A stretch of 64,000 nt of DNA from Clostridia bacterium. Its GTDB lineage: Bacteria; Bacillota; Clostridia; TANB77; CAG-508. Below the pieces are notes generated by a model. That model did no database searches, had not been told where the DNA came from, and saw nothing but the letters and a program-made list of their open reading frames with translations. The stretch is from the NCBI GenBank assembly GCA_017510245.1, contig JAFWNQ010000013.1:3361-67360 (forward strand), read 5' to 3'. Made by a program: the position numbers and the translations under genes. Below, in pieces: positions 28,812-51,290 of the stretch; position 1 is the first letter of the stretch; each line of letters starts with the position of its first letter.

Positions 28812-28827
28812 TATCAAAGGAATAAGT

Positions 28828-29445: not shown

Positions 29446-29459
29446 TCTTTGGAGAAAAT

Positions 29460-30594: not shown

Positions 30595-30609
30595 TAAAAA
30601 GGAAGAGAA

Positions 30610-31494
30610 GTGGATAAAAATATTTCAAATAAAAAGAAGAAAAGAAAATCAAGAAGAAGACATAAACAACCTAATTTTATATTGATACTAATAGTATTTG
30701 TTATAGCTATATTTCTTATGCCTAAATTTATATCAACAGCGAAGTATATTTATAATGTAGTACATGAACATTATTTATCTTCAAAAGACTTTTTCTTCAC
30801 AAGTGATAAATTGAGTATAAATCACACAGAATATGAAATAACAAATAACTGGTCTGGAGCAGAAACCTATGTAATTACTGTTAACATGAGTAGTAAAGAA
30901 AATGATATGGCATATACAGAATCTGATATTAAGTATCAGATTTCATATACTTGCTCAGATAATATTAGTTGCACTTTAAATAAAAATGAAGGAACTATAG
31001 TAGGAACTGATAATAATGGGGTTAATGAAGACTACTTTACTGCTAGTATAAATCCTGCTGGAGGAACTGCACTAGCTGAAGGTGAAGTTGCATGGATTGA
31101 ATTAACTGCTACATCTACAGAGCCATATACTCAAACGTTGACTGGAAAACTTATACTTGAAGTTGGTTCAGCAGAAATAACCTATGAAATAATTGATTCT
31201 GAAAATCAACCATATTTAACAGTTAATATAACAAATTCACAGAGTGTTGGAACAGATGTAACATTATCTTATAGTCCTAATACACTATTGTTAGATATGA
31301 CAAGTAGATTTAGACTAAATTCTAATAATCACGGAGATGAAACAATAAACGGTTATAGCTATTATAATAGCATAACATCATATGTAGAATCATTGAGCAC
31401 AACTTCAGTTAAGTTTTACAAAAAAGATCCAACACAAAACTATTCATATACTAACGGATCTAGTGGTACACCAGTAATAACATTAACGCATTAG
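30610..31494 (+). CDS. TasA-like secreted protein (signal ...FISTAKYIYNV)
   Basis: Poly-basic N-terminus, TM, and a SipW-cognate-like motif. Thr/Ser-rich beta-rich body. Confidence 0.55.
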   Translation: MDKNISNKKKKRKSRRRHKQPNFILILIVFVIAIFLMPKFISTAKYIYNVVHEHYLSSKDFFFTSDKLSINHTEYEITNNWSGAETYVITVNMSSKENDMAYTESDIKYQISYTCSDNISCTLNKNEGTIVGTDNNGVNEDYFTASINPAGGTALAEGEVAWIELTATSTEPYTQTLTGKLILEVGSAEITYEIIDSENQPYLTVNITNSQSVGTDVTLSYSPNTLLLDMTSRFRLNSNNHGDETINGYSYYNSITSYVESLSTTSVKFYKKDPTQNYSYTNGSSGTPVITLTH

Positions 31495-31506
31495 TATGGA
31501 GGTCGT

Positions 31507-32514
31507 ATGACAACAAATTTAATGGAACAATATTTAAATATTACAAAACTCTTTATTAAGGAGTTTACAAAGCTTTTCCTAGAAGAAGAATATAAAGAAG
31601 ATATTTCGAAAGAATTTATATCAGCATATATAGATTCTAGAATATATAATTATAGTGGAAATAATGAAAAGTTTTTTTATAAAAGAATTTACCAGAACTT
31701 AATAAACATTAAAAATGAACTAATTGGTAAACTTGATAAGAATTTAGAAAAAGCTATAGAAGATAATCTAAGAATTTATCAATTTGTATTCTACATTGAT
31801 GGAGTTAGACCAATTGGTGATTTAAATGAGTTTGTAAAACTAATATGTGAAAAGAGAAAAGAAATAATAGATAAAAATGAAACAAAAGATACAAACTTAT
31901 CATTTAATAGATTGATAAAGAAATATAATGAAGATAAAGAAAAGTTTTTTAAGAATTATGAAACTACAGATTTTTCTCTTGAAATAGAAAAATACATTTT
32001 AGTTGATGATACATATAAAGCAAAGCTTAAATACAATTTTAGAATTCCATATATATATAGTCAAAAAGTAATAGATGAAGTGTACAATAGTGGAACAGTT
32101 AATGAGGACAAATTGATTATAGAATATACTTTACTAACTCTAAACTGTATAAAAGAGATTAATAATGGAAATTTTACTACAAAGTATTTAGTCGAATTTG
32201 CAAATACTCTTTTTGACAAAAGTAACAAAATAAAACAATCGCTTAGAGTTCTTAATAATCAAGCAATACAGGAAAAAATAATTCTAAAAGTTAATTATGC
32301 TGATTATGAAGAAAATAAGGAACTTTTCTATGAGTTAATAAAGGAAGGATTTAAATTTGCAATTATAATTGATAATTCATTTAAAGCAGATATGATAAAT
32401 CTAAAAAAACTAAACATGTTTGACTATTTATTAGTGCCAGAAAAAAGTGAAAACTACTATGACATAAAGTATTATGAGAATAACATTACAAATATTGTAA
32501 TATATGATGTATGA
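31507..32514 (+). CDS. Cytoplasmic hypothetical protein of the cluster
   Basis: 335 aa, no TM, Lys/Glu/Tyr-rich. Confidence 0.45.
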   Translation: MTTNLMEQYLNITKLFIKEFTKLFLEEEYKEDISKEFISAYIDSRIYNYSGNNEKFFYKRIYQNLINIKNELIGKLDKNLEKAIEDNLRIYQFVFYIDGVRPIGDLNEFVKLICEKRKEIIDKNETKDTNLSFNRLIKKYNEDKEKFFKNYETTDFSLEIEKYILVDDTYKAKLKYNFRIPYIYSQKVIDEVYNSGTVNEDKLIIEYTLLTLNCIKEINNGNFTTKYLVEFANTLFDKSNKIKQSLRVLNNQAIQEKIILKVNYADYEENKELFYELIKEGFKFAIIIDNSFKADMINLKKLNMFDYLLVPEKSENYYDIKYYENNITNIVIYDV

Positions 32515-32529
32515 TAAAGAGGTGTATAT

Positions 32530-34065
32530 ATGGATACATTTTTGAGATTTTTATATGAACTAATAAACCAAATAGTATCAGGGATATTCTCGATTTTTAA
32601 AGGATTCATTGAAGGATTTAAACAAATTTTTAATTTTACTGCATTCTACAATTTAGTAACACACTATAAAAATGACTTTTCAGGTCCAGAATGGTTATTA
32701 GTAGCTATAACAGTGTTATTTATGATAGTGTTATATGGAGGAACTCTATTCCTAATTGTATTTGGAATAAAAAAACTAATAAAGAGAATTAAACCTATAA
32801 ACAAAGGCGAATTATTAAATGAAGTAGATGAGCTAAACAAAAAAGTAATAAAACTATCTAAAGAAAAAGACGAGATATTAGCAATGAAAGTTTCCCAACT
32901 TGGATTAAAACCAGATCAGCCATTAGAAGGTGATGAAACTGTAGAAGGCGAGGCACAAGAAGGTGAAGAAGCAGTTGGAGAAAATGGAATAAGATTTTCT
33001 AAATTAAATCTAATAGATATGGAGTATGCTGACTACAAAATAAAGAACTATGGAAATTCTTTTGACTTACCAGAGCTATGTGATAATTTTAGAAATTTTG
33101 CAGCATCTAAATTAAAACTATTTTATAAAGAAAGACTTATTAGAACATTTGTGGCAGGTCTAGCATCAACAAGACTAGTTATTCTACAAGGTATCTCAGG
33201 TACTGGTAAAACATCTCTTGCTTATGCTTGGGGAAAGTTTATGAAACAAGATTCTTGCGTAGCATCAGTTCAACCATCTTGGAGAGATAGAACTGACTTG
33301 TTTGGATATTTTAATGAATTTACAAAGAAATTTAATGAAACAGAATTGTTAAAAGAGATGTATATAGCCGACTATACTGATGATGTTTATACAGTAATAC
33401 TAGACGAGATGAACTTATCACGTGTTGAGTATTATTTTGCTGAAATGCTATCAATACTTGAAATGCCAGACAAGAAAGAATGGATAATTGAAATTGTTCC
33501 AAACACATGGGCAAGTGATCCAAAGAAATTAATACAAGGAAAAATACAAGTACCACCGAATATGTGGTATATTGGAACAATTAATAATGATGATTCAACA
33601 TTTGCTGTAACAGATAAGGTGTATGATAGAGCAATGCCTATAGATATTAATGAAAAGGGAGAACCTTTCACACCAGATGATATTGATGCACAGAATATTA
33701 ACTATTCATATTTAGATAAACTGTTTACTGAAGCAATGGAAAATTTTGAAATATCTCAAGAAACACTAGATAAGATAGAAAAAATGGATGACTTTGTTAT
33801 CAAGCACTTCAGAATTGCTTTTGGTAACCGTATTGTTGCACATATGAAAAAGTTTGTTCCAGTATATGTAGCATGTGGTGGAACAGAAGTAGAAGGGGTA
33901 GATTACTTTATAGCTAAAAAGATTCTAAGAAAATTTGAACAATTAAATATGGCATTAATTAGAGATGAAATTGATGGATACATAAAGTTTTTAGATGATA
34001 CATTTGGAAAGGGAGCAATGGCAGAATGCATTGAATACTTATTAAGACTTAAGAAGATGGCATAG
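32530..34065 (+). CDS. Membrane-anchored McrB-like AAA+ (AAA_5) NTPase
   Basis: TM helix at residues ~55-80, a coiled coil, an acidic linker, then Walker A ILQGISGTGKTS and a McrB-type Walker B/sensor TVILDEMNLSRVEYYFAEMLSILE. Confidence 0.65.
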   Translation: MDTFLRFLYELINQIVSGIFSIFKGFIEGFKQIFNFTAFYNLVTHYKNDFSGPEWLLVAITVLFMIVLYGGTLFLIVFGIKKLIKRIKPINKGELLNEVDELNKKVIKLSKEKDEILAMKVSQLGLKPDQPLEGDETVEGEAQEGEEAVGENGIRFSKLNLIDMEYADYKIKNYGNSFDLPELCDNFRNFAASKLKLFYKERLIRTFVAGLASTRLVILQGISGTGKTSLAYAWGKFMKQDSCVASVQPSWRDRTDLFGYFNEFTKKFNETELLKEMYIADYTDDVYTVILDEMNLSRVEYYFAEMLSILEMPDKKEWIIEIVPNTWASDPKKLIQGKIQVPPNMWYIGTINNDDSTFAVTDKVYDRAMPIDINEKGEPFTPDDIDAQNINYSYLDKLFTEAMENFEISQETLDKIEKMDDFVIKHFRIAFGNRIVAHMKKFVPVYVACGGTEVEGVDYFIAKKILRKFEQLNMALIRDEIDGYIKFLDDTFGKGAMAECIEYLLRLKKMA

Positions 34066-34077
34066 GAGGAGCATTTA

Positions 34078-35160
34078 ATGAGAGAACTTGAAGTTACGAA
34101 TTTATATGATAGTATTGATGAACAAAGACTGGAAGATTTCAATAGCAAATTGGATTCTAGCATGAGGGTTAAAACTGATTACTTTAAGGATGATAATGAT
34201 TTTGAATGGGTAGATAAATTTGAACAATTATTACCTTATATAGAAAAGATACTTAGAAATCCAAAAAGATTTATTACAACAGAAGAAGAAATTGTAAAAA
34301 TTGAATCAGCAAAGAAAGTTGGAGTTGAAACAGTAAAACATCTTGCAAAGCATACTAATTATATACAAGATATTGATGAAGAATCAGGAGATGTAATACC
34401 ATCAAAACTATTGAATGTATTAAAAGAAGAAACATTTAATACATATGAAAATAGATTTATTTATACATTAATTCAAAGAGTTAGAGACTTTATAAAAAAA
34501 CGTAAAGATAATATAAAAAGTAATCCACGACTTAAGGATAATAAAAAGGTTGAGTATACAAGTTCAACAATGGTTGGAGAAGAAAAAATTAATGTTAATA
34601 TTCAATTAAATACTGACCTTGACACTAAAACTGAGGTAGATAAAAGAATACTAGAAAGAATCAAAAAGATAGAAGACAATGTTAAAGACATGCAATATAC
34701 TGAAGTTTATAAAGAATTAGAAAAAGAAGGAGTGCCACTTGTTACTCCACCAATAAAGAAAACTAATGTAATATTGAAAAATGTTAATTTCCAATATGCT
34801 ATGACATTATGGGATTACGTTAATGAAAATATTAGTAAAAAGGATAATCCAGTAAAAAAGAATAAAGATTATATGGAAAAAGGATCAATAAAAGGTTTGA
34901 TTGATGAGACTTTTTTACTTGAGTATTTAACAGTAAATAATATTAATAAGGATGAAGAATTTATTAAAGATGCAAAGGAAAAAACCTTAAGTAGAATGTT
35001 AGATAAAATTATTGACTTGAATCCTGAATTAACAAAAAAGGAATTACAAGAAAAACTAGGTTTAGAATTTGATAAAGCAATAGAAAGAAGAATTGCTACA
35101 AAGAATGACATAGAAAAAATATTCAGAAAATATTTAAACAGATATCTTGAAAAAGTATAA
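34078..35160 (+). CDS. Partner protein of the McrB-like NTPase (possible McrC-like/DUF2357-like; unverified)
   Basis: Starts 13 nt after the AAA+ gene. 360 aa, charged, no TM. No clear PD-(D/E)xK motif seen. Confidence 0.4.
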   Translation: MRELEVTNLYDSIDEQRLEDFNSKLDSSMRVKTDYFKDDNDFEWVDKFEQLLPYIEKILRNPKRFITTEEEIVKIESAKKVGVETVKHLAKHTNYIQDIDEESGDVIPSKLLNVLKEETFNTYENRFIYTLIQRVRDFIKKRKDNIKSNPRLKDNKKVEYTSSTMVGEEKINVNIQLNTDLDTKTEVDKRILERIKKIEDNVKDMQYTEVYKELEKEGVPLVTPPIKKTNVILKNVNFQYAMTLWDYVNENISKKDNPVKKNKDYMEKGSIKGLIDETFLLEYLTVNNINKDEEFIKDAKEKTLSRMLDKIIDLNPELTKKELQEKLGLEFDKAIERRIATKNDIEKIFRKYLNRYLEKV

Positions 35161-35172
35161 TATGGAGAAAAT

Positions 35173-35829
35173 ATGATGATAAAAATAATAAAGGGAATTT
35201 GGGCAGTAATTAGAGCAATATTGTCTGTACTATTAGTAATACTATTGGCAATAGTTCTTACGCAAAGATTAACAAATAACAAAAATGCTGTTTTAGGATT
35301 TAGAATTTTTACTGTTGTTACAGAAAGTATGGTTCCACAGTTTGAAGTAGGAGATGCTATTTTTACTAAACAAATTCAACCTTCTGAAATAAAAGTAGGA
35401 GATGATGTTACTTATATAGGTACAGAGGGAAGCTTTAAAGATAAAATAGTAACTCACAAAGTTATTAAAGCAGAGAAGAATGAGGAAGGTAAATACATAT
35501 TTGTAACTAAAGGAATTGCAAATGAAAAGGAAGATCCTGAAATAAATGAAACACAGATTTATGGAAAAGTATTATATAAAATAAGAAGCATTTCGTATAT
35601 TAATAGAGTAATTGGTAATCTATATGGAATGTACTTTGCAATATTTATCCCATTAGGAATAATAATGTTTATAGAGTATGCTGGTTATAAAAAGGACTTA
35701 AAAGATGAGCTTGAAGAAGAAAATGAAGAGGACGAAGAATTAGAAGAAAATAAGATAGATAAGCATAAAGAGAGAAGAATGGAAAGACGAAAAAAAAGGA
35801 GAGAAAAAAGGAGTAATAAAGAAAAGTAA
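35173..35829 (+). CDS. sipW: Signal peptidase I, SipW type (second copy)
   Basis: VVTESMVPQF Ser box, IVTHKVI His box, C-terminal TM and a KRREKRS tail. Confidence 0.75.
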   Translation: MMIKIIKGIWAVIRAILSVLLVILLAIVLTQRLTNNKNAVLGFRIFTVVTESMVPQFEVGDAIFTKQIQPSEIKVGDDVTYIGTEGSFKDKIVTHKVIKAEKNEEGKYIFVTKGIANEKEDPEINETQIYGKVLYKIRSISYINRVIGNLYGMYFAIFIPLGIIMFIEYAGYKKDLKDELEEENEEDEELEENKIDKHKERRMERRKKRREKRSNKEK

Positions 35830-35873
35830 TAATACTTGTATGAATCACTAAAGAAAGGAGGCATGGGTATTAA

Positions 35874-36530
35874 ATGAATAAAAAAAGAAAAGAAAAGCTT
35901 TCAAGAAGACAAAGAAGAATAAAAAAAAGAGTTACATTTAGAACTTTATTTTTACTAGCTATAACCCTAATTTTTAATACCTATGCATGGTTCCTATATA
36001 TAACTACTGTTTCTTCTAGCATTACTGCCCATGTTGAAGCGTGGCATGTTGAATTCAAAGTTGATGATGATGTGGTTGAGAAAGAATTACCTATTGTTGT
36101 TGAACACGCATATCCTGGAATGCAAGACGTTGAAAAAACAATAGATATAATAAATGGAGGAGAAAGAAGTGCTGATATTCAGTACATAATAAAACATGTA
36201 AGAATCTTTGATACATTGTATGTGGCTACTGACCAGCTTGAATCTGGCGAATCAGTTCCAGCAGGTGCGGAAACTTCTACTTCCAGCGGACTTATTTCAA
36301 AGATACAGAATGATTATCCTTTTTCTATTACAATATCGACAAGTGACGGCACAATTGCTGCATCAGAGCAGGGAAGCCTTACTGTTACGTTTACGTGGCA
36401 ATATGAATCAGGTGATGATGCTACTGATACTGATTATGGAACAGAGGCGTATACTTATTATCAAGACAATCCTGGAAGTGATGCAATAGAAATATTACTA
36501 AAACTAACAGTAACACAACATGAAGACTAG
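35874..36530 (+). CDS. TasA-like secreted protein (signal ...NTYAWFLY)
   Basis: RRQRRIKKR then TM, then TYAWF. Asp/Thr-rich C-terminus. Confidence 0.6.
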   Translation: MNKKRKEKLSRRQRRIKKRVTFRTLFLLAITLIFNTYAWFLYITTVSSSITAHVEAWHVEFKVDDDVVEKELPIVVEHAYPGMQDVEKTIDIINGGERSADIQYIIKHVRIFDTLYVATDQLESGESVPAGAETSTSSGLISKIQNDYPFSITISTSDGTIAASEQGSLTVTFTWQYESGDDATDTDYGTEAYTYYQDNPGSDAIEILLKLTVTQHED

Positions 36531-36654
36531 TATAAAGGTTTTTGTAAAAAGAAATAACATATTAACAAATGATTATACTTATATAAAAACGTAAAAAAAG
36601 AAATGTGAAGAGGACTTAATAAAAAGTTCATTACACATTTCTTTTTTTACGTTT

Positions 36655-37266
36655 TTATGCTGTTAACTGCTCAAAAACAATATTTGCTTCTATTACTGCC
36701 TTGCCATTACTAATGGCAATTGCTGTATCTTCAATGTCATTAAGTGTTTCTGTATCGTGGTCATCATTCCAAGTGACATAAACTCTAATTGTTGAAGAAT
36801 TAACTGAACTTGCTGAACTACCAACTATACTGGTTTGATCTGAAGTTAAGTAGGTGATGTTTTCTTGAAGTCCTGGATAAGAGTATCCTGCAACTTTTAC
36901 ATCTGAAATATCATTTACACTAGTGCCAGAAACAGTAATCGTATATTTAAAAGCTAATGAAATATTAGATGAATCAATTACTAAATCAAAATATCCCATA
37001 GCACTTGGAACTATATAGTCTGGATCATAGTAATCATTTTCTGAAAATATTAAGTTTAGAGTTTGACTAAAATCAGAATTCTGAATAATATCCTGATTAT
37101 TTAATAGAATTTTCCAACCGTCAATTGCAAAATTAGCATTTGAATCAATTGACGATAAATATTTTGCATAAGTAGACCTAATTATTAATAATGAAATAAT
37201 TAACCAAACAAATGCAAAAAATAGTATTATTTTTTTCTTCATAAGAGTACTTTTCCTTTCTAACAA
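36655..37266 (-). CDS. TasA/camelysin-like secreted protein (signal ...RSTYAKYLSS), opposite strand
   Basis: MKKKIILFFAFVWLIISLLIIRSTYAKYLSSIDSNANF. Confidence 0.65.
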   Translation of the reverse strand: MLERKSTLMKKKIILFFAFVWLIISLLIIRSTYAKYLSSIDSNANFAIDGWKILLNNQDIIQNSDFSQTLNLIFSENDYYDPDYIVPSAMGYFDLVIDSSNISLAFKYTITVSGTSVNDISDVKVAGYSYPGLQENITYLTSDQTSIVGSSASSVNSSTIRVYVTWNDDHDTETLNDIEDTAIAISNGKAVIEANIVFEQLTA

Positions 37267-37486
37267 TGCTGAGTAGCATACAAAAGTATTAATAATCTAA
37301 CTAATTTATATTATAACATATTTAGACAAAATAAAAAGAAATATTACAGAAATGTTAAAAATATGTAAAAATAATGCAAAGAAAATGTAAAAACTTTGTA
37401 ATTGTATTACTCAATACAATATGCTATACTTTGTATAAATCAATATTGTATATATTGTTTATTCACAAAAAAAGTTGGTGTTACAC

Positions 37487-38263
37487 ATGCAAGAAAATCA
37501 AGAAAACCATAGTGTTGACAATCTAAAGAAAGACAATGTCGAAAAAGGAAAAAAAATATCTGAGAAAAGAGAAACAAGGAAGAAAGCAAAAAAAATATCA
37601 GATATAGGAGAAAGAACAAAAAAACTGAAGAATATCCTTATAATAATGCTACTATTCTTATTAATACTTTACTTTGTTTTAAGAATAGCTTATGAAACAG
37701 GAAGGTTTACAGTAGTTCTTGATTCTTCATCAGATATGAAAGGCGCTTTGGTAATGTATGCAAACAAAAACGAAAAACTAACTAGAAGAACATTACAAGC
37801 AGATGTTTTAGATTTTATGACTAACATTTCAGGGGATTGGATACCAGAAAACATTAATGATGAGGCAGATGGTGGACACAATGGGGAAAACTATATTGCA
37901 TATACATTCTATATTGAAAATATGGCTGACGAAACAATTCATTATTGGTATAGAATTTATATTGATGATATAGTAAGAAATGTTGATAAAGCAATTAGAG
38001 TAGCAGTTTACTTGAATGGTGAAAAAACAGTATATGCAAAAGCAAACAGTAGAACATCCGAACCTGAAAAAGATACAGTAGCATTTAAAGATGAAGAAAA
38101 TGTTATGTTGGTTCAAAGGAGAGATTTTAAATCTAAGGATGTAGACAAATTTACTGTTGTAATATGGGTTGAAGGTGATGATCCTGATTGCATAGATGAC
38201 CTGATCGGTGGAGAAATGAAAATGCACATGACCATAACTGAAGAACATATTAAACAAGAATAA
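37487..38263 (+). CDS. Secreted protein with variant SipW-cognate-like signal and a conserved C-terminal IWVEGDDPDCID motif
   Basis: N-terminal KK-rich region, then TM, then RIAYETGRFT. The C-terminus is homologous to that of 38287..39288. Confidence 0.55.
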   Translation: MQENQENHSVDNLKKDNVEKGKKISEKRETRKKAKKISDIGERTKKLKNILIIMLLFLLILYFVLRIAYETGRFTVVLDSSSDMKGALVMYANKNEKLTRRTLQADVLDFMTNISGDWIPENINDEADGGHNGENYIAYTFYIENMADETIHYWYRIYIDDIVRNVDKAIRVAVYLNGEKTVYAKANSRTSEPEKDTVAFKDEENVMLVQRRDFKSKDVDKFTVVIWVEGDDPDCIDDLIGGEMKMHMTITEEHIKQE

Positions 38264-38286
38264 ACTTAAGGAAAAAGGAGAAAAAA

Positions 38287-39288
38287 ATGGGAAGAAGAAG
38301 TAGAAAAAGTAAGAGAAGATTAAATTCTATGTTTTTAGCAGTATTGCTATCAGCAGTTATGCTAATAGTAACAACATATGCATGGTTTTCTTCAAACAGA
38401 ACAGTTTCAATTGAAGGAATTACAGCAAAAGTTGCAGCAGCAAATGGCCTACAAATATCGTTGGATGGTGCAAACTGGGGCTCAAGTGTTACAGTAAATA
38501 CAACTACACTTGCAGCAGCAGATGACTATAATGACTATGTATTTCCAAATGAATTACATCCAGTATCAACAACAGGGACAACGCTTGATTCAGGAGATGT
38601 TAGTTTCTTTGCTGGATTAGTTAGCTCAGATGGATCAAAATTAACAAGTGCAGCACAGGCTGGTGCAGCAGATAATTTTATAGTATTCGATGTATATTTA
38701 AAAAATGCATCATCACAAACTTCAGATAATTTACAATTAGATACAAATACAGAAGTTAAATTAGGTGCTACAGAAGGAAAAGAGGGTGTAAGAGACACGG
38801 GTCTTGAGAATAGTGTTAGAACTGGATTCTTATTATATCCAACAACAGCACAATTTACAGCAGCTCAATCAGCTATAGCATCATTAGGTGGAGATAGCCC
38901 ATTAGTAGGAATTTGGGAACCTAACTACAATAAACATATTTTGGAAGTTGCAACTAATGACCCAAGAGTTGAAGAATCAACAACTAGTGATTTTAAAACT
39001 TTAGGATTATTAAATGCTGGTTCAGGAACACTAACTGGAATTGATGGAACTGATGATACAGACTTTATGGCAGAAACAAAGACAATAAGAACTGATGCTA
39101 AATTAACTGCACCTGTAAACCTTACAGCTGTAGATGAGACTGGAACTCAGTTTTCACTACCAGGAAATACAATTTCTAGAATGAGAGTATATATATGGTT
39201 AGAAGGACAAGATCCAGACTGTATAGACACAGCATCAACTGGTAAATATTTAGACTTCTTAATTAATTTAGCGAAGCCAACAGTTTAG
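38287..39288 (+). CDS. TasA-like secreted protein (signal ...TTYAWFSSN) with C-terminal IWLEGQDPDCID motif
   Basis: MGRRSRKSKRRLNSMFLAVLLSAVMLIVTTYAWFSSNRTV. Ala/Thr/Gly-rich beta body. Confidence 0.65.
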   Translation: MGRRSRKSKRRLNSMFLAVLLSAVMLIVTTYAWFSSNRTVSIEGITAKVAAANGLQISLDGANWGSSVTVNTTTLAAADDYNDYVFPNELHPVSTTGTTLDSGDVSFFAGLVSSDGSKLTSAAQAGAADNFIVFDVYLKNASSQTSDNLQLDTNTEVKLGATEGKEGVRDTGLENSVRTGFLLYPTTAQFTAAQSAIASLGGDSPLVGIWEPNYNKHILEVATNDPRVEESTTSDFKTLGLLNAGSGTLTGIDGTDDTDFMAETKTIRTDAKLTAPVNLTAVDETGTQFSLPGNTISRMRVYIWLEGQDPDCIDTASTGKYLDFLINLAKPTV

Positions 39289-39441
39289 TAAATGAATTAT
39301 ATATAAAGATAAGGAGTGGAGTGAAAGATAATATAAATAATTATAGAGTCTTTCACTTCCATTTTGAATTTTAATACAATTATGAAAATAAATATATGAT
39401 GTTTATTTTCATAATTGTGTTAGAGGAAATGAGAAAATAAG

Positions 39442-39561
39442 ATGAACGATATAAATTATAATGAATTGAATAATGAAGAACTACTTGATATGTATATAAA
39501 ACTTAAAGATTTTATTTCTTTTCTAAATGATGAGATAGAAAATAGTGAGGTGGAAAAATAG
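39442..39561 (+). CDS. Small 39-aa acidic protein preceding the coiled-coil gene (not in the ORF track)
   Basis: RBS GAGGAAATGAG, then ATG. MNDINYNELNNEELLDMYIKLKDFISFLNDEIENSEVEK. Ends 6 nt before the next gene. Confidence 0.35.
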   Translation: MNDINYNELNNEELLDMYIKLKDFISFLNDEIENSEVEK

Positions 39562-39567
39562 TATAAA

Positions 39568-41187
39568 ATGAAAAAAGAATTAGGAGCATTAGAAAAACTA
39601 AATAATCAAATTGACGTTGATAAAGAAGTTCTATCTGTTCTACCTAAAAATAATAAAAGGAATTTACAAGCATATAAAAACAAGGCTGATGAAATAAAAC
39701 ATGAATATGTAAATCTCTATGATAATGTTATTTTAGAACTAAAGAGAAGGACAATTAAGATTAAATCCATTGAGATAGATCCTAAGATTGAACAATTAGA
39801 AAATCAAATTAAGGAAATGGATAATGTTAAATTACTTGATAATAATATTACTTCTTTTGAAAAAATGGAATTAGAGGAAGTTCTTTATACACTAAAAAGA
39901 TTTTATAAGAATAATCTAGAACTAGTAAATGAAGCAATTGTTGCCTGCTTAGATAAATTTAGAATGGCAGGGATTAATTTAAGACAAGAAGACTTTGACT
40001 ATAGTATATATACAAATGAATATATGAGAGTATTTTTAGATGATATGAGAAAGGGAGACATTAATTCTTCTCGAATTAAAGATACATTTGAACAAATATA
40101 TTGGAAATGCTCAGATATTATAATTCATATAGAACTAAACTTTAGAAGTTTATATTTTAAATATGAAAAACAAATAAACAAATACTTCTCTGATATTAGT
40201 AAAGATAATATAAAGAGAATTGGACTTAATGAAAAAGAGGCAATTGAAAGATATAATGCATTGCAAAGCCAATTATTAGAGTTAAAAAATAGAGACACTT
40301 CATTAATTGTAGAAAGATTTTTAAAAAATGAAAAAAATCCAAAAGATTATGAAGAATCAAGTATAGAAAAGAATTATAAAAAATTAATTGGTAAAGATGT
40401 AAATGAATTGACTCCTGAAGAGCTTGTAGAAATTAATAAAAATATATACAGACTTCAAAATAGCTTATATGAATATAAACATTATTTAGAATTTAAGTAT
40501 ATATATGATGATGCAATAGAGGTATACAAAGATAATGAAAAATATAAAAACCTATATAACCAAAAGTATAAACAAATTAAAAAATTAGAGTCAAAATTAC
40601 GTAAAGCTAATAATAGGTTAAAAAAATATGAAAACCATATTGGAATTTTAAAAAAGATATTTAAAAGAAATACTAATAGGTTGGAAGAAGCAAATATAGA
40701 TATAAACAGCATTATTTTACAGTTAAGAGATGAATATAGAAAACTTGAAGAATACAAAACAAAAAATATCATTTCTACTGTGTTAAATGATGGATCTACT
40801 ATTTATGATGTTCTTATATTAGTATGTCAATTTCATAATTTTTTGGTTGACAGTATTATAAAGCAGAATCCCGATATAACTCAAGAAAACATTGAAGAAA
40901 GTATTAAGAAATATAATAGTTTTGTAAAATATCCTAGAATTACAATTATAAACAATATTAATATTAATGAAGATAAGAATATGGTTTTAATGATTAAGGA
41001 TAAGTACAATTTATGTAATCTTAATATTGAAAAGGGTGATTTAGATGTGGATAATTTGCCAAATCTAATAACTACAGTTAATAATATATGTGACAGTAAT
41101 TATATAAAAAATAGTAGTATTTCTGTTGATGAAATAAAATTTGTTTTGCAGAGTGAAAAGATACTAATTGAAAACAACAAGATATAG
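39568..41187 (+). CDS. Large coiled-coil cytoplasmic protein
   Basis: 539 aa with Lys/Glu-rich heptad-like repeats and no TM. Confidence 0.5.
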   Translation: MKKELGALEKLNNQIDVDKEVLSVLPKNNKRNLQAYKNKADEIKHEYVNLYDNVILELKRRTIKIKSIEIDPKIEQLENQIKEMDNVKLLDNNITSFEKMELEEVLYTLKRFYKNNLELVNEAIVACLDKFRMAGINLRQEDFDYSIYTNEYMRVFLDDMRKGDINSSRIKDTFEQIYWKCSDIIIHIELNFRSLYFKYEKQINKYFSDISKDNIKRIGLNEKEAIERYNALQSQLLELKNRDTSLIVERFLKNEKNPKDYEESSIEKNYKKLIGKDVNELTPEELVEINKNIYRLQNSLYEYKHYLEFKYIYDDAIEVYKDNEKYKNLYNQKYKQIKKLESKLRKANNRLKKYENHIGILKKIFKRNTNRLEEANIDINSIILQLRDEYRKLEEYKTKNIISTVLNDGSTIYDVLILVCQFHNFLVDSIIKQNPDITQENIEESIKKYNSFVKYPRITIINNININEDKNMVLMIKDKYNLCNLNIEKGDLDVDNLPNLITTVNNICDSNYIKNSSISVDEIKFVLQSEKILIENNKI

Positions 41188-41217
41188 AAAGAGAAAGGAT
41201 ATTTATTTTTAAAGAAA

Positions 41218-41805
41218 ATGACAATACAAAAGAATGGAGATATTAAATTATTAAAAGCAATTATAGTTTATCTTGCATATATAATAATTGTACCTTTTAT
41301 CATATATGATGTATATCTAATTGCACACAAAATTATGAATCCAAATTCTTCTCCTGAAATATTTGGAATGAAAACATTTAATATTATTTCAGGGAGTATG
41401 GAACCTAATATAAGTGTTGATGATATAGTAATTACAAAAAAGTGTGATAAGCTGGATATTCAATTGAATGATATTATCACATATAGAGCTGAAGGAGAAA
41501 CTATAACACATAGAGTTATCAATATAGAATTTATTAATAATAAAGTCTACTATACAACAAAGGGTGATTCTAATGAAGTGGCTGATTTAAAAAAAGTAGA
41601 GTATAGTCAAATAGAAGGTAAATATGTTGGAAGAATACCAAAGATAGGAAAGATATTTATTTTCTTTAAGAATAGTATAAACTTTTTTATAACTTTAACA
41701 ATTCTATTCTTATGCTACTTATGGCAGAGGAAAAGTATAAAAAAGAAGATTTTAAGAAAAGAAAAGAGAATTAAATTTGAAAGAAAAATGAGTTACACTA
41801 AATAG
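41218..41805 (+). CDS. sipW: Signal peptidase I, SipW type (third catalytic copy)
   Basis: ISGSMEPNISVDDIVI and ITHRVI motifs. N- and C-terminal TM helices. Confidence 0.8.
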   Translation: MTIQKNGDIKLLKAIIVYLAYIIIVPFIIYDVYLIAHKIMNPNSSPEIFGMKTFNIISGSMEPNISVDDIVITKKCDKLDIQLNDIITYRAEGETITHRVINIEFINNKVYYTTKGDSNEVADLKKVEYSQIEGKYVGRIPKIGKIFIFFKNSINFFITLTILFLCYLWQRKSIKKKILRKEKRIKFERKMSYTK

Positions 41806-41828
41806 TGTAACTCATTTTATAGTGAAAT

Positions 41829-43454
41829 TTATTTTTTTAATGGTAAATCATATTTAATTTTAAAACATGAGAATTTATCTAATTCATTATCATCTAAACA
41901 ATCTAAATAAATATCTAATTCATCCAAATCCTTACAAGCAGAAATGATAGCAGGATTTAAATCGGATTGAAACATTAATTCGAATCCTAACTCAATGGCT
42001 TCTTTTAAAGAACCTTTTTCTTTCTTTTTAATTAATTGAAAAGCTTCTCTAAATCTAGACTTAATTGGATTTTTGTATGTCTCCATAGGAACGACATACT
42101 CTTTTTCAATAATCTCTTCTAAACTAGAATACTTATTACTTGATTTTAATTTTTCCTTTATATCATCAAGCTTATAAGGAAGAATTACTTTTTTATTAGA
42201 ATCTGAAATAATTAAAGTATCATTATCTGATAAAGTATAGGTACTATCAATAATACTTGTTTCTGCTATATCATCATCTTGCTTAACGACTTTTTTATCT
42301 TCAGAAGATATATCATCATTATTCTGATCTGAATTATTATTTGCATCAGAATTATTATTGTTTTCAGCTGGAGAATTTTCAATAATTGTTTCTGCTTTTG
42401 CTTTTGCATTTGAAGAAGTCTTTTTTTGTTCAACTTTATCAAGTTCTTTAGTGATTTGAACTTCAGGCTCTATAGTTTCTTCAACGATATTATCATTATT
42501 TTCTGATAAAGAAGTAGAAGTGTGTGATAGTATGCTAGAATCAAAGCTTTCATCAGTAAAATTAATAATTCCACTTTCAGCTACTAGATTTACTTCACTA
42601 TTTGATATTTCTATTTCTATAAAATCATCACTTTTTGATACTTTAGAAACTTTGGTAATAGGTGATAATTCTAATTTTTCATTTGTGATAATTTTATAAT
42701 TTGATTTTATTTTTGCAATGTATAAGATATCACCATTGCTTGAATTTGAAATTTGAACACCTGATGTTTTTAATGATAAATTAAAACTTTCATCTTTAAT
42801 ATGTATGCTTGCAACTTCATTTTTAAATGAAATCTTATAATTTTCTTGAACTGTTGAAATTACTAAACTATCAGTTTCCTTTTTAGGAAAGAAACATAAT
42901 AGATCTGAAGCATATACATCAACATTTTTTTTGATAAAATCAAATTCTGATTTTGTTTTTTGACTACTTGAAGAAGAATATGTAATATCAAGGAAAGAAC
43001 AAGGCTTTAAAATATCATTTTTATATTTGTTTAGATTTGCTGAAATCTTTATATCTTCTTTGGAAGCAATGTTTTCAAAGTTAGTAATTGTTTGATAAAG
43101 AAGACTTTGAAGCAATTCAATATCATTATTTGTTTTTAATACTAGAGCATTATAAGTATTAATGTCTTTTGCGCTAAGTTTAAATTGCTTTTCTAATAAG
43201 TCTAAAGCATCATTTAAAGAATCTATACCTTCAACAATTGAATCAATTTGTTCAAGTGAACTTGTCAAATTATTCAAAAACATTGTTTTAATGTATTCAT
43301 TATCTATTTGTAATTCTTTAAATTCAGCAATATAAGAAGATAAAGAATTCTTAATATCTTTTTCATAAATAATATATTCATTTACAAGCTTTTTTTCAGC
43401 ATGTACCAATGCTTTAACATTTGTTTTTTTTTGAATTTTGTAGCATGTTAACAT
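41829..43454 (-). CDS. Coiled-coil / Ser-Asn-Asp-rich hypothetical protein, divergent from the giant protein gene
   Basis: 541 aa, no TM. Bidirectional terminator GAGTTACAC/GTGTAACTC at its 3' end (41786..41815). Confidence 0.45.
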   Translation of the reverse strand: MLTCYKIQKKTNVKALVHAEKKLVNEYIIYEKDIKNSLSSYIAEFKELQIDNEYIKTMFLNNLTSSLEQIDSIVEGIDSLNDALDLLEKQFKLSAKDINTYNALVLKTNNDIELLQSLLYQTITNFENIASKEDIKISANLNKYKNDILKPCSFLDITYSSSSSQKTKSEFDFIKKNVDVYASDLLCFFPKKETDSLVISTVQENYKISFKNEVASIHIKDESFNLSLKTSGVQISNSSNGDILYIAKIKSNYKIITNEKLELSPITKVSKVSKSDDFIEIEISNSEVNLVAESGIINFTDESFDSSILSHTSTSLSENNDNIVEETIEPEVQITKELDKVEQKKTSSNAKAKAETIIENSPAENNNNSDANNNSDQNNDDISSEDKKVVKQDDDIAETSIIDSTYTLSDNDTLIISDSNKKVILPYKLDDIKEKLKSSNKYSSLEEIIEKEYVVPMETYKNPIKSRFREAFQLIKKKEKGSLKEAIELGFELMFQSDLNPAIISACKDLDELDIYLDCLDDNELDKFSCFKIKYDLPLKK

Positions 43455-43610
43455 GTTCCTTTCTTTGGTAAAAAATAACTCAAAAAAATTATAACATAAA
43501 AAATAAAAAATGACTATAAAAAAATAAAAAAAAGTTATAAATTTTGTAGAAAAAAGAAAATAATATGCTATAATATAAATGGAAAATTGTAAAACTTAAG
43601 AGGAGAAAAA

Positions 43611-46600
43611 ATGATTTATAGAAAATCTTTATATAATAAAAAATTAAATAAAAGAAGAATGATAACAGTTATAACATTTGGAATAGTTTTTTTAATATCT
43701 ACTATAGCATACTATTTTGTTAGCCTATCATCAGCACAGAATGTATTAAAAGCTATGGTATATGTTATAGATGAAGAAGCAGAAGTTGAAATAACCAACT
43801 ATGAGTTGAAGGTTCCTGAGGAATCTGGAGAATACATTGCTAATTTTGAAATGTACCAAAATGGATTTAAGATAAAAAAATATACTGTTACTACAGAAAA
43901 AGAATTCAATGATATTAAAAGTAAATACGAAGGAGGAGATGTAGTAACAAATGAGAATGAAACAGATGAGACAAGTAAAAATGAAGATACTAACATAGAA
44001 AATAATTCTACTGATGAAATACAAAAAGAGAGTGAAGAAACAAATGATGAAGAAAAGAAGATAGAAATAACAAGCGGAGAAAAATATGAATTAACAACAA
44101 GAGAGATAGAACAAAAAAAGATTTATCTTATAGCACAATATGACTATAAAGAACAAAAAGGAGAAAAACTATACAATAAAGTCTTATCAAATACAGCAAA
44201 TAATAATAGTATTAGTATTACTGGCTATATGCCAAAAGACTCAACGATAAAAGTTAACGAAGTTGAAAAAACAGGTGTTGAGGACATAATTAAAGGTAAT
44301 TTCCAAGATGTAAATAAAAATGTAAATTTGGAATCTGCTTATGATATAAAAATTGTTTCAAAAGGAAATGAATATGAACCAGAAGATTTTGGTGAAAGCG
44401 TAAAAGTTTCAATTACTGGGATTGATGGAAAAACCATTAATGTTTGGCATGTAAAAGATGACAACACAGTTGAAATGATGGAATCATATAACAAAAATGA
44501 TAGTGTATCTTTTAAAAGTGATAGCTTCTCAATTTATGGAGTTGAAGTAGTAGAAGAAGAGGAAAAGGTAGAAGAAACTGACGAATCATTTCAAATCAAT
44601 AATAGTATAAAAGCAGCGCCTAGAAGAGCTCCAGCAAGAAATCTGCCTGATAGTATATTAGAAATTGACGATTATACATCAGACTACTATTATTATTTAG
44701 GACAAAATTACACATCTGACATTTCAGGAGAAAACCAAGAAATCTATTCAGAAAGTGATATGGCTAGAGTTACAGTTAATTATTACGGCTTTGCAGAAGG
44801 AGAAACCGATGCAGAACGTAAAGGAAGAATATCATTTGATGAAACACAAGACATAGTTAAGAATATTAGATGCTTACCGATTGTTAATGGTAGTGTTTCA
44901 ATAGAGTTAATGGATAATCCGTTTATGGATAAGCCAACAGGATATGGATTTGGAGGTTGGACTTCGTCAGCAGGGCAAATCAGTAAGGATTCCCACACCA
45001 ATGTTCAAACATTGACAGTAAGTACATCTGGAGATATAGTAGTTAATGTTTATGCGAATTGGCAAGAAGCCACAGTCGTTTATGTAAATGGAGAAGATGG
45101 AAATGATAATCTAAATGATGGATTAACAGAAGATAAACCATTTGGATCATGGGAGGCTGCATTTAAATATATTTCATCTCATAACAAAAGTGATAGAGAA
45201 AAAAATATCATAGTAGTAACTGGAGATTTAGATACGAGTATAAATTATACAAGACCAATAACTCAGAGAATAGCTAAACCAGCAGATGTAACGTTTACTT
45301 CTTCAACAACAGTTATTACTGGCACTGAAGTGGTTTTAGCAACTAATACTGGCAACAATGGAAATGCAATAACTGCATCTGGGTCAGGTGTTGTAAATAC
45401 GCAATTAAGCACAAATGAATTACCACCTGATGAAATAAAGTGGGTAATAACAGTTTCTGGAAATGGAAATAATGCTAGATATACTATATATAATCCTGCA
45501 ACTAATATGTATTTAGCTTGCAGTAGTAGTGGTGTTTTATCTATGAGTTCAACAGCAACACAGTTTAGATATAACAATAGAAGATTTTATTATACTGGAA
45601 CTAGATACTCATATTATTTGAGGTATACAAATGGAAGTTGGACTACATCAACTAGTTCATATAATGGGCAACAGTTTTATTTTTTAACATATACAGCTGT
45701 TGTAGATGAAAATGCAGAAGAAATAATTACTACAACAAGAGGGAGTCTAGCTGCTAATACATATTATTCAACAAGTCAAAATATACCTGTAACTGTAACT
45801 AGCTTATATAATCATACTGATTATAGGAGTGATGCTACAATTGATCTTACAACCTCAAATTATGATGATTTTGACATTCGTGCTGACTTTCAAATGAACC
45901 ATGTTAAAATAAATGCTAGTGGGTATACTACAAATAATGATGGAACAACTTTTTCTACATCATATCCTTGGCTTACCGGATATGCACATAATGTTAGAAT
46001 AGGAAGAGGAATCCAATGTGCAAATACACAAACTGCAGGATGCACTTTTGCAAATGTAATTGGAGGTGCAACTTCAGTAACTAATAACTATAATAATGCA
46101 TACAAACTAGTAGTGGAATCAGGAAAATACTCTTCTATTCAAGGATTCAATAGAAATGGAGCAAACAACTCATATTATGGAACAGTATTCCTTACCTTAG
46201 GAAATGATATTGATAGAAAAGATGCAAGTAATGACGACCTATCTGTATATAACATAACAACAATTAATTCAGGTGGTGGAACAAATGGAAAATCTAATAT
46301 TAGAGAAAAGGCCTGGCTAATAAATGTTAAAAGTGGAAAGTTTGGTACAGATTTTTTTGATACAAATGGAGCAAATAATGTTGATAGTGCTTATGCAGGA
46401 ATATATATGGGCGGATATGGAGCCTCTTCTTCAAATACAGTAAGAGATATTAGTGATAGATATATGATTGTAGAGGGAGGATTAATTGCCAATATAATTG
46501 GCGGACTTAAAACTACATCTAATTCTGGAGTTCTAACAAAATTTTATATGAAAGGTGGGGAAGCCTATAACATTGTTGGTGGAGCTGGTGTTTCAGCTAC

Positions 46601-49600
46601 TTATGAAGATCGATTTATCCAAATAACAGGAGGAAAAGTTAGATATAGTGTAAGTGGTGGATCAAATGGTGTTTATGCTTCAAGTACTACAAATAATGGA
46701 AAGCTTAATGGTGATACATTAGTATATGTTGGAGGAACAGCTCAGATTGGTACAGATGCAACATTATCTTCAACTGTTTATGGAGTTAAGGCAGGATGTG
46801 TATTAGGTGCAGGTAATGGTAACTATGATTATCGTAATAGTGGTGCTGGACAAGTATATACTACACATATTTTAGTAAATGATAGTGCTCATATATTAAA
46901 TAGTGTATATGGTGGTGGAAACTACGGAATAGTAGGAACAAGTGGTTCAACTACGGGTAATACAAAAATAGATATAATGGGAGGCACAATAGATCAAAAT
47001 GTATATGGAGGTGCTAATCAAAATAATATTTATGGTTCTACAACAATAAATGTTTCAGGAGGGCAAGTTAAAGGTGCAGTATATGGAGGTTCAAACTCTG
47101 AAGGTACAATTTCAACAACATCAAACATAAATGTAACTGGTGGAACTCTTGGAGAAGAATCAAATGGTGCAGATGAAGTATTATTTGGTGGAGGCTATGG
47201 TGCTTCAACTATAGTAACAAATGATGCAACTGTTAATATATTTGACACAGATGATAATGTTAATATATATGGAAGCTGTTATGGAGGAAGCTCTTTAGGG
47301 AGAATGTCTCAGAATGTTACTGTTACAATAAAGGATGATCCTTCAATAGAGAATACAATTAACATTGTAGGAAATGTTTTTGCTGGAGGAAAGGGAAATG
47401 CTGGAAATGCAGCAACTATTAATGGTGATGCCACATTATTAGTGGATGGTAATTCTCTATCACAAGCAAGTGTATTTGGTGGAAATGATATTAATGGTGT
47501 AACAAATGGAGATATAACTGTAAAAATAGGAGAACACTACAGTTCACAAGTATTAAATGTGTATGGTGGTGGTAATGAAGATGATACTGGTACAGAAGCT
47601 GATACCGTAAAAGTGTATTTGCTAGATTATGCAAATGTTACAAATGCTTTTAATGGTGGAAAATCTGCTAATTTAACTACTGGAGGAGTATCAGATACTA
47701 CAAGAGCCATCTATTTAAGGATTGGACATGCTCAAAACATTTTTGGTGGATCAGATACTTCAGGAACAGTTACTGCAAGTCATGTATATATTGAATCTGG
47801 AACTGCAGATAATGTATATGGTGGAAATAATGAAGGTGGAACAACAACTACCTCGTATGTATATATTACAGGAGGAACAACAACAAATGTATATGGAGGG
47901 GGATATTTAGCTACTACTCCAACAACAAATGTTAGTCTTACAGGAGGAACAATTACTAATGGATTTGGTGGAGGAAATGCTGCTAACGTTGGAACAGCAA
48001 ATATAACTCTAAACGGAACAAACTCTACAAATATATATGGAGGTTCAAATTCTTCAGGAACAGTTACAAAGGCAAATGTTACAATTACATCTGGAGCAGC
48101 TACTAATGTGTTTGGTGGAAATAATGCAGGTGGAGACACTGTGGATACCGATGTATTGATAACCTCTCAAGTTAAAAATGTATATGGTGGTGGAAATGAA
48201 GCCATTACTTCAGGAAATACAAATTTAAGATTAACTAATGCAAACATTACTGGAGATGCTTATGGAGGTGGTAATGGTGCTGCAGCTGTAGTAGTAGGAA
48301 ATAGTACTACTTTAGTTGAAGGGACTACTAGAATTGCAGATGATCTTTTTGGTGGAGGAAATGCAGCTGCTAATGGAAATCTTACAAATACTTCAGCTGT
48401 TGTAACAACTCTTATAACTGGAGGAACAATTGTAGGAGATGTTTATGGTGCTGCAAATACATCTGTTGTAAATGGTAATACATTTGTAAAAATAGGAACA
48501 GTAGCGGTTAATAATAATACAATGATAAAGGGAACTATAAATATTGGGGGAACAGTATTTGGAGGAGGAAAGTCAAATAGTGCAGGTTCAGAAACTTATG
48601 ACTTCTCTTTCGAAAGTGTTACTGGAGATGCAAATATAGATATAGATGCAACTGGATATGATGATGGAACATATTCATTCAATATAGGCAAAAGTGTATT
48701 TGGATCTGGAAATGCAGCTAAAATTTCTGGATACGGAATAGTAAATATTACTAATTATGGAACTGCAAGTAGTGTTAAAGAAAATGTATCAATACAAAGA
48801 GCAACTACAGTTACATTAAATAATTGCCATATGTATTTAGAAGGAACAACTGATACAACAAATGAAATTGCAACTGCTGTTTATACTTTTAATAGAATAG
48901 ATGATTTAATAATAAAGAATAATACAACATTATATTTGGAAAGTGGTGTAAATATTGTTTCTAAGATGGAAAGTTTAAACTCTTCAGGCGCAAAAGAAAC
49001 AGTAACAATTGGGGACAATGGAATAACAAACCAAAATGTAAATAATAAAATATATGTTGCTCAAGGTAGAAATATAATATTAAGAACTGAAGCAGGAACT
49101 GATGGAGAAGTATATGGAATGGCTTTTGTTGGACTGTTTAAAGGATCAACGAATCGTGAGTTTGGCATATATGGAAGCTCTTATACACAAGGAAGTTCGA
49201 TTTCAAGTGAAGTGGCAGATTTGTTTAACAGAAACTCTTATGTACAGGGAAAACATTATAATAATCATAATATTAAGGCAGATGGATTTTATACAAACTA
49301 TAATGATAATGGTGTAGTAAAAGTAGACTATATTACTCCAACACCAGAAGATGCAACATATTATCAGTGGATTATGGGAGAAAAATCAACAGACATTTAT
49401 TATGAAGACATAGAATTAATTGCTACAAAATATGCTACAACAGCTACATATGTGCTAAACTTGAATGGTTTAAGCTATCCTAATATGACGATAAATGTAG
49501 TAGGATTTGATGTTTCAGAATTAACAGGAAACATTACACTAAATGATCCAGGCACTATTCCAAATATTGCATCAACTGCACAAGAAGCTGATTCAAAATT

Positions 49601-51290: not shown

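Follow-up and report, generated by a model that had tools for sequence, protein, structure and literature searches.

To which system does a protein of 2559 amino acids (aa) belong when its gene lies beside several genes for SipW-type signal peptidases, and how might its N-terminal signal be processed? This question is raised by the window analysed here, a stretch of 64 000 nucleotides from contig JAFWNQ010000013.1 of a Clostridia bacterium. The window is ∼28% GC and is chromosomal, since genes for NusA, IF-2, ZnuA and Tex are present elsewhere in it. The gene for the large protein, termed the giant below (mass roughly 280 kDa), is an uninterrupted 2559-codon frame with an ATG start and a good ribosome-binding site (GAGGAG, 8 nt upstream), just as called in the first-pass annotation, which a model had made from the sequence before any database search. 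We find that the giant belongs to the core of a conserved cluster rich in SipW paralogs, and we somewhat favour the view that it is the large component of a cluster of the CoCoPALM type, probably matured at an S-x-A↓Q site (arrows mark cuts) by one of the SipW paralogs of that cluster.

CONSERVED SYNTENY OF THE GIANT AND ITS CLUSTER

The cluster is a block of ∼17 genes (window 28311..51290). Its gene order is SipW1, Tas1, SipW2, Tas2, Tas3, p335, a McrB-like GTPase, DUF2357, SipW3, Tas4, Tas5 (reverse strand), p262, Tas6, a micro open reading frame (micro-ORF) of 39 aa, p539, SipW4, p541 (reverse strand) and the giant, where Tas is no more than a provisional name for the small secreted proteins of the cluster. 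On nine of nine metagenomic contigs a giant is surrounded by one-to-one orthologs of SipW1–4, Tas1–6, p262, p335, the McrB-like gene, DUF2357 and p539. The giants on these contigs are only 27–70% identical, and the order of the cluster genes is sometimes circularly permuted. A Bacteroidota relative of the giant with a type IX secretion system (T9SS) tail, which served as a negative control, has none of the cluster genes.

Family hidden Markov models (HMMs) were also run on the flanks of the giant in 80 species-level genomes. Tas-like genes were found beside it at 75 loci, SipW genes and p539 at 71 each, Tas6 at 69 and the GTPase at 52, this last count being limited by flank length. The immediate upstream neighbour is most often Tas6 (33 loci), followed by an active SipW2-like paralog (19), p541 (9) and p539 (9); downstream it is p539 (35), SipW1 (21) or SipW4 (7). 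At ∼35 of the 80 loci the giant has an active-type SipW paralog either directly beside it or with p541 alone in between. Because orthologs of the cluster genes recur beside giants on all nine contigs and in 75 of 80 genomes, the giant counts among the core genes of this conserved, SipW-rich cluster and is not an adhesin that stands by itself. The first-pass annotation had grouped it functionally with SipW-type peptidases and small secreted proteins, and the conserved synteny, with active-type SipW4 nearby (84 bits), bears this out.

Three of the four SipW proteins pass the TIGR02228 cut-off of 51.85 bits (SipW2 66.6, SipW3 82.8 and SipW4 84.2 bits), and SipW4 has the SGSM, THR and KGD motifs. 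SipW1 (28311..28811) and its orthologs (L004:19837-20454, L008:16542-17072 and L009:12049-12585) lack the catalytic Ser of the SGSM box and the His of the THR box, yet are conserved in the cluster. Judged by these motifs, the cluster appears to hold three active-type peptidases (SipW2–4) and one dead one, SipW1, possibly retained as an assembly factor or chaperone.

The GTPase carries the motif GTINNDDST, in which the McrB signature takes the NxD form and the next residue is D; the motif is invariant in the orthologs that cover it. It matches McrB weakly (NF008457, 28.5 bits) and the PADLOC candidate model PDC-M26A at 120.7 bits. A transmembrane (TM) segment at aa ∼55–80 and a heptad-like stretch are seen in its sequence; there is no DivIC/FtsB Pfam match at E ≤ 0.1. 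The DUF2357 partner adjoins the GTPase in all loci reaching that far, and in the window the pair (32530..35160) sits midway in a cluster of secretion type. CoCoPALM was named in 2024 in one paragraph (section 7) by Bell et al., who deferred its description to a later publication; the traits given there are an NxD McrB-like GTPase fused to an FtsB-like TM/coiled coil, a DUF2357 McrC homolog and signal-peptidase-family genes (PMC11090510). By its gene content the window cluster appears to match this type. A literature search for a CoCoPALM follow-up found none.

THE N-TERMINAL SIGNAL OF THE GIANT

The giant begins MIYRKSLYNKKLNKRRM-ITVITFGIVFLISTIAYYFV-SLSSA-QNV. A basic n-region (aa 1–17) precedes a hydrophobic segment (aa 18–37) and a c-region, S38-L-S-S-A42. 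As the first-pass annotation had noted, the hydrophobic segment follows a basic stretch and contains S30-T-I-A-Y-Y-F-V37. It is 20 residues long (KD19 2.05) and is the only one in the protein; a scan of the whole giant found no LPXTG-like motif, no C-terminal anchor and no second hydrophobic segment, which agrees with the earlier statement that it is not LPXTG-anchored.

Conservation of the signal was measured among 31 close orthologs. The STIAYYFV stretch is 72% identical, against 34% for the domain that follows, and is the best conserved within the N-terminal 500 aa. S40 and A42 are invariant in all 31, whereas A33, the −1 residue of the cut TIA↓YY that the first-pass annotation proposed, varies (Ala in 21, Thr in 8, Ser in 2). 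In the AlphaFold2 (AF2) model STIAYYFV lies within a helix and SSA in a loop; the corresponding STYAWF of Tas6 is in a low-confidence stretch past its helix. Since A33 varies while S40 and A42 are invariant in the predicted post-helix loop, the likeliest cut is A42↓Q43 rather than TIA↓YY. Giants of the P0025-type subfamily lack the ‘IA’ and retain S-K-A↓, and other subfamilies retain analogous T-[YF]-[GSA]↓[DE] or [ST]-x-[AS] sites.

When all giant N-termini were aligned with those of Tas4 and Tas6 using hhalign, the score was 25.5 (P = 9e-6), compared with 10–14 for SipW TM controls. The register places STIA(Y/F)YF..N of the giants on STYAWF..N of Tas6, that is, S-T-x-A-aromatic-aromatic-x-x-N. 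We read the signal of the giant as being of the same style as the signals of the small putative substrates in the cluster.

As a separate observation, giants from Bacilli/RF39-type metagenome-assembled genomes (MAGs) carry T-[YF]-[GSA]↓[DE]-[YLF] past the hydrophobic segment, which is nearer than the motif of the window giant to the [ST]-Y-[AS]↓[KR]-Y of Tas1, Tas2 and Tas5 (loci L020, L037, L048, L051-L053, L060, L063, L067, L071, L074, L081 and L089).

SMALL SECRETED PROTEINS OF THE CLUSTER

The cluster encodes seven small secreted proteins of putative beta-sandwich fold (Tas1–6 and p262) with conserved signal ends of the [ST]-x-Y-A-x-[FY] type. In Tas6, Y31-A32-W33-F34 is invariant in 52 homologs; the family numbers 343 homologs and has a near-invariant C-terminal YIWLEGQDPDCIDTASTGK. 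Its AF2 model is a beta-sandwich (mean predicted local distance difference test, pLDDT, 87.3).

The first-pass annotation had called these proteins TasA-like. Pfam and NCBIfam, including the TasA/camelysin family PF12389, gave no family match on the small proteins, and PDB sequence searches with Tas6 and Tas1/5 profiles found nothing. Aligned by hhalign with TasA, the same profiles reached a probability of 0.2–0.3%, the sole pattern being a weak C-terminal F-x-Q-[YW]-x-G alignment. Tas6 scores 12 bits on the BsaA family model. A Foldseek search of the PDB with the Tas6 model returned no significant match, and TasA was absent from the list; the TasA-like label was therefore dropped. What the small proteins have in common with SipW substrates is the signal end and the pairing with SipW genes.

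ARCHITECTURE OF THE GIANT

An HMM of the Gly-rich repeats was seeded on seven obvious units and refined by iteration; over aa 1093–1666 it detects 16 units at i-E < 0.05 (22 with weak ones), compared with 0–1 in 20 shuffles. The consensus is x-N-[VI]-[YF]-G-G-[GSN]-N; adjacent units are 24–34 aa apart, with a median spacing of 26 aa. The YGGGN repeats of the first-pass annotation are thus real, while their number (dozens) and period (∼21 aa) had been overstated. A search for tandem repeats at the DNA level was negative; the repeats are therefore old.

The AF2 model covers aa 1–1200 (51-sequence alignment, mean pLDDT 86.7). A helix at aa 2–38 and a low-confidence loop lead into a head made of an alpha/beta domain, an acidic disordered linker and immunoglobulin (Ig)-like sandwiches, after which come a second disordered linker (aa 316–343) and an alpha+beta domain. 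This domain includes a GYGFGGW stretch, and residue G449 of the domain is invariant. Here PF18998 (Flg_new_2) scores 19.1 bits at aa ∼443–484, under its cut-off of 23.6, and the model is confident and beta-rich. BLASTP of the giant against the true Flg_new domain of a neighbouring gene was insignificant (E = 12). A Listeria-Bacteroides repeat had been announced for the giant; PF09479 is silent, and this one sub-threshold PF18998 match is what the searches returned.

Next in the chain is a predicted beta-trefoil insert, for which Foldseek matches in the PDB are Symfoil, FGF and botulinum HA33 (probability 1.00, TMt 0.55–0.73, marginal E of ∼2e-3, best 1.7e-3); FGF matches also occur in BFVD. 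Its boundaries were placed from 12 strands, as the Foldseek output gives no query range. No known beta-helix was among the Foldseek matches (PDB and BFVD) of the aa 1–1200 model.

Pfam gave no match on the whole giant at E ≤ 1 and nothing above cut-off on seven segments of it, PF02415 (Pmp) and PF09479 being silent on both. NCBIfam gave nothing meaningful, a PDB sequence search found no resembling chain, and the C-terminal 800 aa have no Pfam match to an autotransporter beta-barrel. HMMs of the Tas families detect no Tas-like domain in the body, and there is therefore no sequence support for the giant as a fibre subunit itself. From the model and the repeats we infer an exported, repeat-rich, beta-solenoid-like surface protein that combines variable N-terminal domains of binding type (Ig-like, InlB-B-like and beta-trefoil), a long Gly-repeat stalk and a conserved C-terminal module of 800 aa.

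THE GIANT FAMILY AND ITS HOSTS

A word-index search returned 75 relatives of the giant. About 58 are Firmicutes-type giants of 2.2–3.4 thousand aa without a Pfam domain, one of which, from an NCBI MAG, is 99% identical. The remainder are Bacteroidota giants (PF13287/PF13290) in which the common region is only aa ∼720–1660, at 24–33% identity; one of them, P0067, is the sole case among these relatives of a T9SS tail (PF18962).

When the C-terminal 809 aa were searched exhaustively with HMMER, at least 337 representatives (clusters at 50% identity) came up at E ≤ 1e-3, of which 176 also pass E ≤ 1e-30. Full-length matches (2.5–3.5 thousand aa) align through their C-terminal ∼810 aa; shorter matches are fragment-like. 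With one genome scanned per GTDB species, the family is present in at least 289 species genomes, and the best 80 of these are all uncultured gut/rumen MAGs of Clostridia and Bacilli (RF39/‘Tenericutes’-labelled). Conservation within the family is concentrated in the solenoid and the C-terminal module, and variation in the head domains at the N-terminus. The family is undescribed: it is unnamed, Pfam has no domain for it and the structure of no relative has been solved.

HOW THE GIANT MAY BE PROCESSED

On the reading that we favour, the giant would be exported by Sec through its single N-terminal signal and then cut in the conserved c-region, most likely at S40-x-A42↓Q43, by a SipW paralog of the cluster, adjacent SipW4 being the obvious candidate. 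Together with the small subunits it would then build a fibre or matrix on the cell surface, in which it would be the large part, serving as adhesin or stalk. Several observations weigh against this. An HMM of the Tas4/6 signals gives the window giant ∼5 bits, ranking it 23–31 of 105 N-terminal TM regions (its L001 ortholog reaches 11–12 bits), so that of the likeness to the small-protein signals claimed in the first-pass annotation the register with Tas6 stands, while the similarity of this giant taken singly is weak. TIGR04088, which had been suggested as a check, has no match on its N-terminal 60 aa at E ≤ 10. Among the eight N-termini searched only Tas6 scores (16.9 bits, cut-off 19); because the model also misses the other six of the seven small proteins, it lacks the sensitivity needed for this cluster as a whole, and little can be read from its failure to match the giant. 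S-x-A is a generic site, open to any type I signal peptidase (SPase I), the housekeeping one included. The continuous helix, the 20-residue hydrophobic stretch and the unusual conservation would also fit an uncleaved anchor. Finally, ‘fibre’ is an analogy, since no TasA homology is detectable in the small proteins. By sequence alone, the signal is compatible with action of a SipW paralog, of the housekeeping SPase I or of no enzyme at all.

The main rival to cleavage by a SipW paralog is an uncleaved signal-anchor, which we regard as unlikely but as a serious contender. The giant would then be held as a type II membrane protein, with its acidic linkers spanning the wall and the C-terminal module outward, and SipW would act on the small proteins only. 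The length and hydrophobicity of the TM stretch suit such an anchor, as do the unbroken helix in the model, the better conservation of the TM sequence than of the adjacent domain, the lack of any other anchoring motif in the giant and the disordered linkers at aa 109–147 and 316–343; yet without cleavage there is no easy explanation for the invariant small −3/−1 residues just past the helix, and the analogous sites in other subfamilies and the adjacent SipW genes also speak for a cut. That cut could instead be made by the housekeeping bacterial-type SPase I, the giant being an ordinary Sec substrate linked to the cluster only via later assembly or co-regulation. S-x-A↓Q is indeed a textbook SPase I site, and the silence of TIGR04088 and the weak signal-profile score agree with it, but the cluster retains four dedicated peptidase paralogs, one of them recurrently beside the giant, and the aromatic motif is in register with Tas6; we consider this explanation improbable. 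Very improbable indeed is that the giant belongs to the chlamydial Pmp/autotransporter type of repeat family, as the ‘Pmp-like’ label of the first-pass annotation suggests, or is an unrelated adhesin that merely neighbours SipW genes. Its ∼25-aa Gly-rich repeats resemble Pmp-type beta-helix repeats in style, and in style only: PF02415 finds nothing at E ≤ 1, the motif is N-V-Y-G-G-G-N and not GGA[ILV]/FxxN, Pfam detects no autotransporter beta-barrel, the hosts are annotated as Firmicutes (Clostridia/Bacilli) MAGs, and synteny in 9 of 9 and 75 of 80 loci excludes chance adjacency. The PF02415 silence and the synteny in 75 of 80 loci effectively refute both forms of this idea.

Beyond cleavage by a SipW paralog lies a bolder proposal, which we hold only tentatively and think rather unlikely: the giant might be the principal payload of a Gram-positive surface-appendage machine in which SipW-matured small subunits polymerise into a giant-carrying fibre, powered or gated by the GTPase. 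Equally tentatively, the dead SipW might be an assembly factor in this machine, and the McrB-like GTPase and its McrC-like partner might have been recruited from a restriction system.

Unannotated giant proteins are common in uncultured gut/rumen Firmicutes, and a link to CoCoPALM gives a barely described system a candidate output, namely a huge surface protein with seven small secreted proteins. It also opens the role of McrBC-like GTPases beside signal peptidases to testing. Should the giant indeed be processed by a SipW paralog, the known substrate range of endoplasmic reticulum (ER)-type bacterial signal peptidases would extend from ∼30-kDa matrix proteins to 280 kDa; if the appendage machine exists, it would represent a new nucleoside triphosphatase (NTPase)-coupled assembly pathway with the largest known SipW substrate.

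FEATURES OF THE CLUSTER AND NEIGHBOURING GENES

The features are collected in Table 1. The micro-ORF (39442..39561) is acidic and lies directly upstream of p539. Eight of the nine metagenomic loci have a gene of 36–60 aa called at the corresponding place; in L009 this place falls past the contig end. The p541 protein is also acidic, and its gene is kept between SipW4 and the giant in Clostridia-type loci. Promoter and terminator scans of the AT-rich window gave nothing above shuffled expectation.

Table 1. Features of the giant and of its cluster in the window
Feature	Coordinates	Strand	Basis
SipW1 (putative dead paralog), Tas1, SipW2, Tas2, Tas3, p335	28311..32514	+	Motifs, orthologs
McrB-like NxD GTPase, N-terminal TM and coiled coil	32530..34065	+	NF008457 28.5 bits, AAA_5
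McrC-N/DUF2357 partner	34078..35160	+	PF09823 65.6 bits
SipW3	35173..35829	+	TIGR02228 82.8 bits
Tas4	35874..36530	+	Orthologs in all loci
Tas5	36655..37266	-	Orthologs in all loci
p262, small secreted beta-sandwich protein, Tas6 paralog	37475..38263	+	Family comparison
Tas6, small secreted beta-sandwich protein, invariant STYAWF	38287..39288	+	Homologs, AF2
39-aa micro-ORF and p539 coiled-coil protein	39442..41187	+	Recurrence across loci
SipW4, active-type ER/archaeal-type SPase I, nearest the giant	41218..41805	+	TIGR02228 84.2 bits, NF046067 SipW 88 bits
p541, 541 aa, no TM segment or known domain	41829..43454	-	Conserved, divergent to giant
Giant protein gene, 2559 aa	43611..51290	+	Intact ORF, 75 word-index homologs, at least 337 representative clusters for C-terminal module
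N-terminal signal or signal-anchor, aa 1–42	43611..43736	+	Only hydrophobic segment; AF2 helix 2–38, low-confidence loop 38–42
S30-T-I-A-Y-Y-F-V37, SipW-type motif proposed in first-pass annotation	43698..43721	+	Conservation, hhalign register with Tas6
S40-S-A42, candidate −3/−1 cleavage site, cut before Q43	43728..43736	+	Invariant residues, helix-to-first-strand loop
N-terminal head: alpha/beta domain 45–106, acidic disordered linker 109–147, Ig-like sandwiches 150–315	43743..44555	+	AF2 pLDDT, DSSP
Alpha+beta domain with divergent InlB-B-repeat-like stretch, aa 349–495	44655..45095	+	PF18998 19.1 bits (below 23.6), pLDDT >90
Beta-rich solenoid-like repeat body, aa 500–1750	45108..48860	+	AF2 pLDDT mostly >90 up to aa 1200
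Beta-trefoil (lectin/FGF-like) insert, ∼aa 570–700	45318..45710	+	Foldseek, 12 strands
Gly-rich repeats, 16 confident N-[VI]-[YF]-G-G-[GSN]-N units	46887..48608	+	Repeat HMM
Family-specific C-terminal module, aa 1751–2559, no known domain	48861..51287	+	No Pfam match

The genes downstream of the giant were considered as cluster members and rejected, since they are not conserved beside giants. They encode a surface protein with DUF285/PARCEL repeats and a true Flg_new domain (51464..52987, 42.5 bits) and a pilin-like protein of 428 aa with a weak N-terminal methylation motif (53036..54322). Elsewhere in the window, two ORFs (17..2521, 834 aa, and 12303..13610, 435 aa) match no Pfam family at E ≤ 1e-5. 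At two other loci (L003:18616-27017 and L006:20008-22202) the cluster is followed immediately downstream by a second module, with a long SipW-type peptidase (379–390 aa) and a DUF5305 protein; that of L003 additionally has a sortase and a giant CLIPPER/Flg_new protein.

COMPARISON WITH KNOWN SYSTEMS

Like the chlamydial Pmp proteins (PF02415), the giant has short Gly-containing repeats and a presumed parallel beta-helix; unlike them it differs in repeat motif and period, is passed over by the family HMM and has no detected autotransporter barrel domain. The Bacteroidota T9SS giants (e.g. P0067; PF13287/PF13290/PF18962) have a Gly-repeat zone homologous to that of the window giant. In contrast to it, they have a cleavable signal peptide and a Por_Secre_tail, and lack both the C-terminal 800-aa module and a SipW/McrBC cluster.

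The tapA-sipW-tasA operon of Bacillus subtilis and sipW-bsaA of Clostridium perfringens are matrix-fibre operons in which the genes of secreted substrates lie next to that of a dedicated ER/archaeal-type signal peptidase; known SipW substrates are ∼200–300 aa. The window cluster resembles these operons in placing SipW-type peptidases beside secreted proteins, and in a signal end of the T-x-A-x-F type (STYAWF in Tas6 and Tas4). It differs in having four peptidase paralogs instead of one, in adding the McrBC-like GTPase pair and a protein of 2559 aa, and in small proteins without detectable TasA/camelysin homology or fold match.

With regard to CoCoPALM, the passages of Bell et al. on that system, on the pilus and on the signal peptidase mention no giant, no small secreted substrates and no dead peptidase (PMC11090510). 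What the window cluster shares with the system, as those passages give it, is an NxD McrB-like GTPase with N-terminal TM and coiled coil, a DUF2357 (McrC N-terminal) partner, several signal-peptidase-family genes (four here) in an operon-like block, and Bacillota hosts (PMC11090510).

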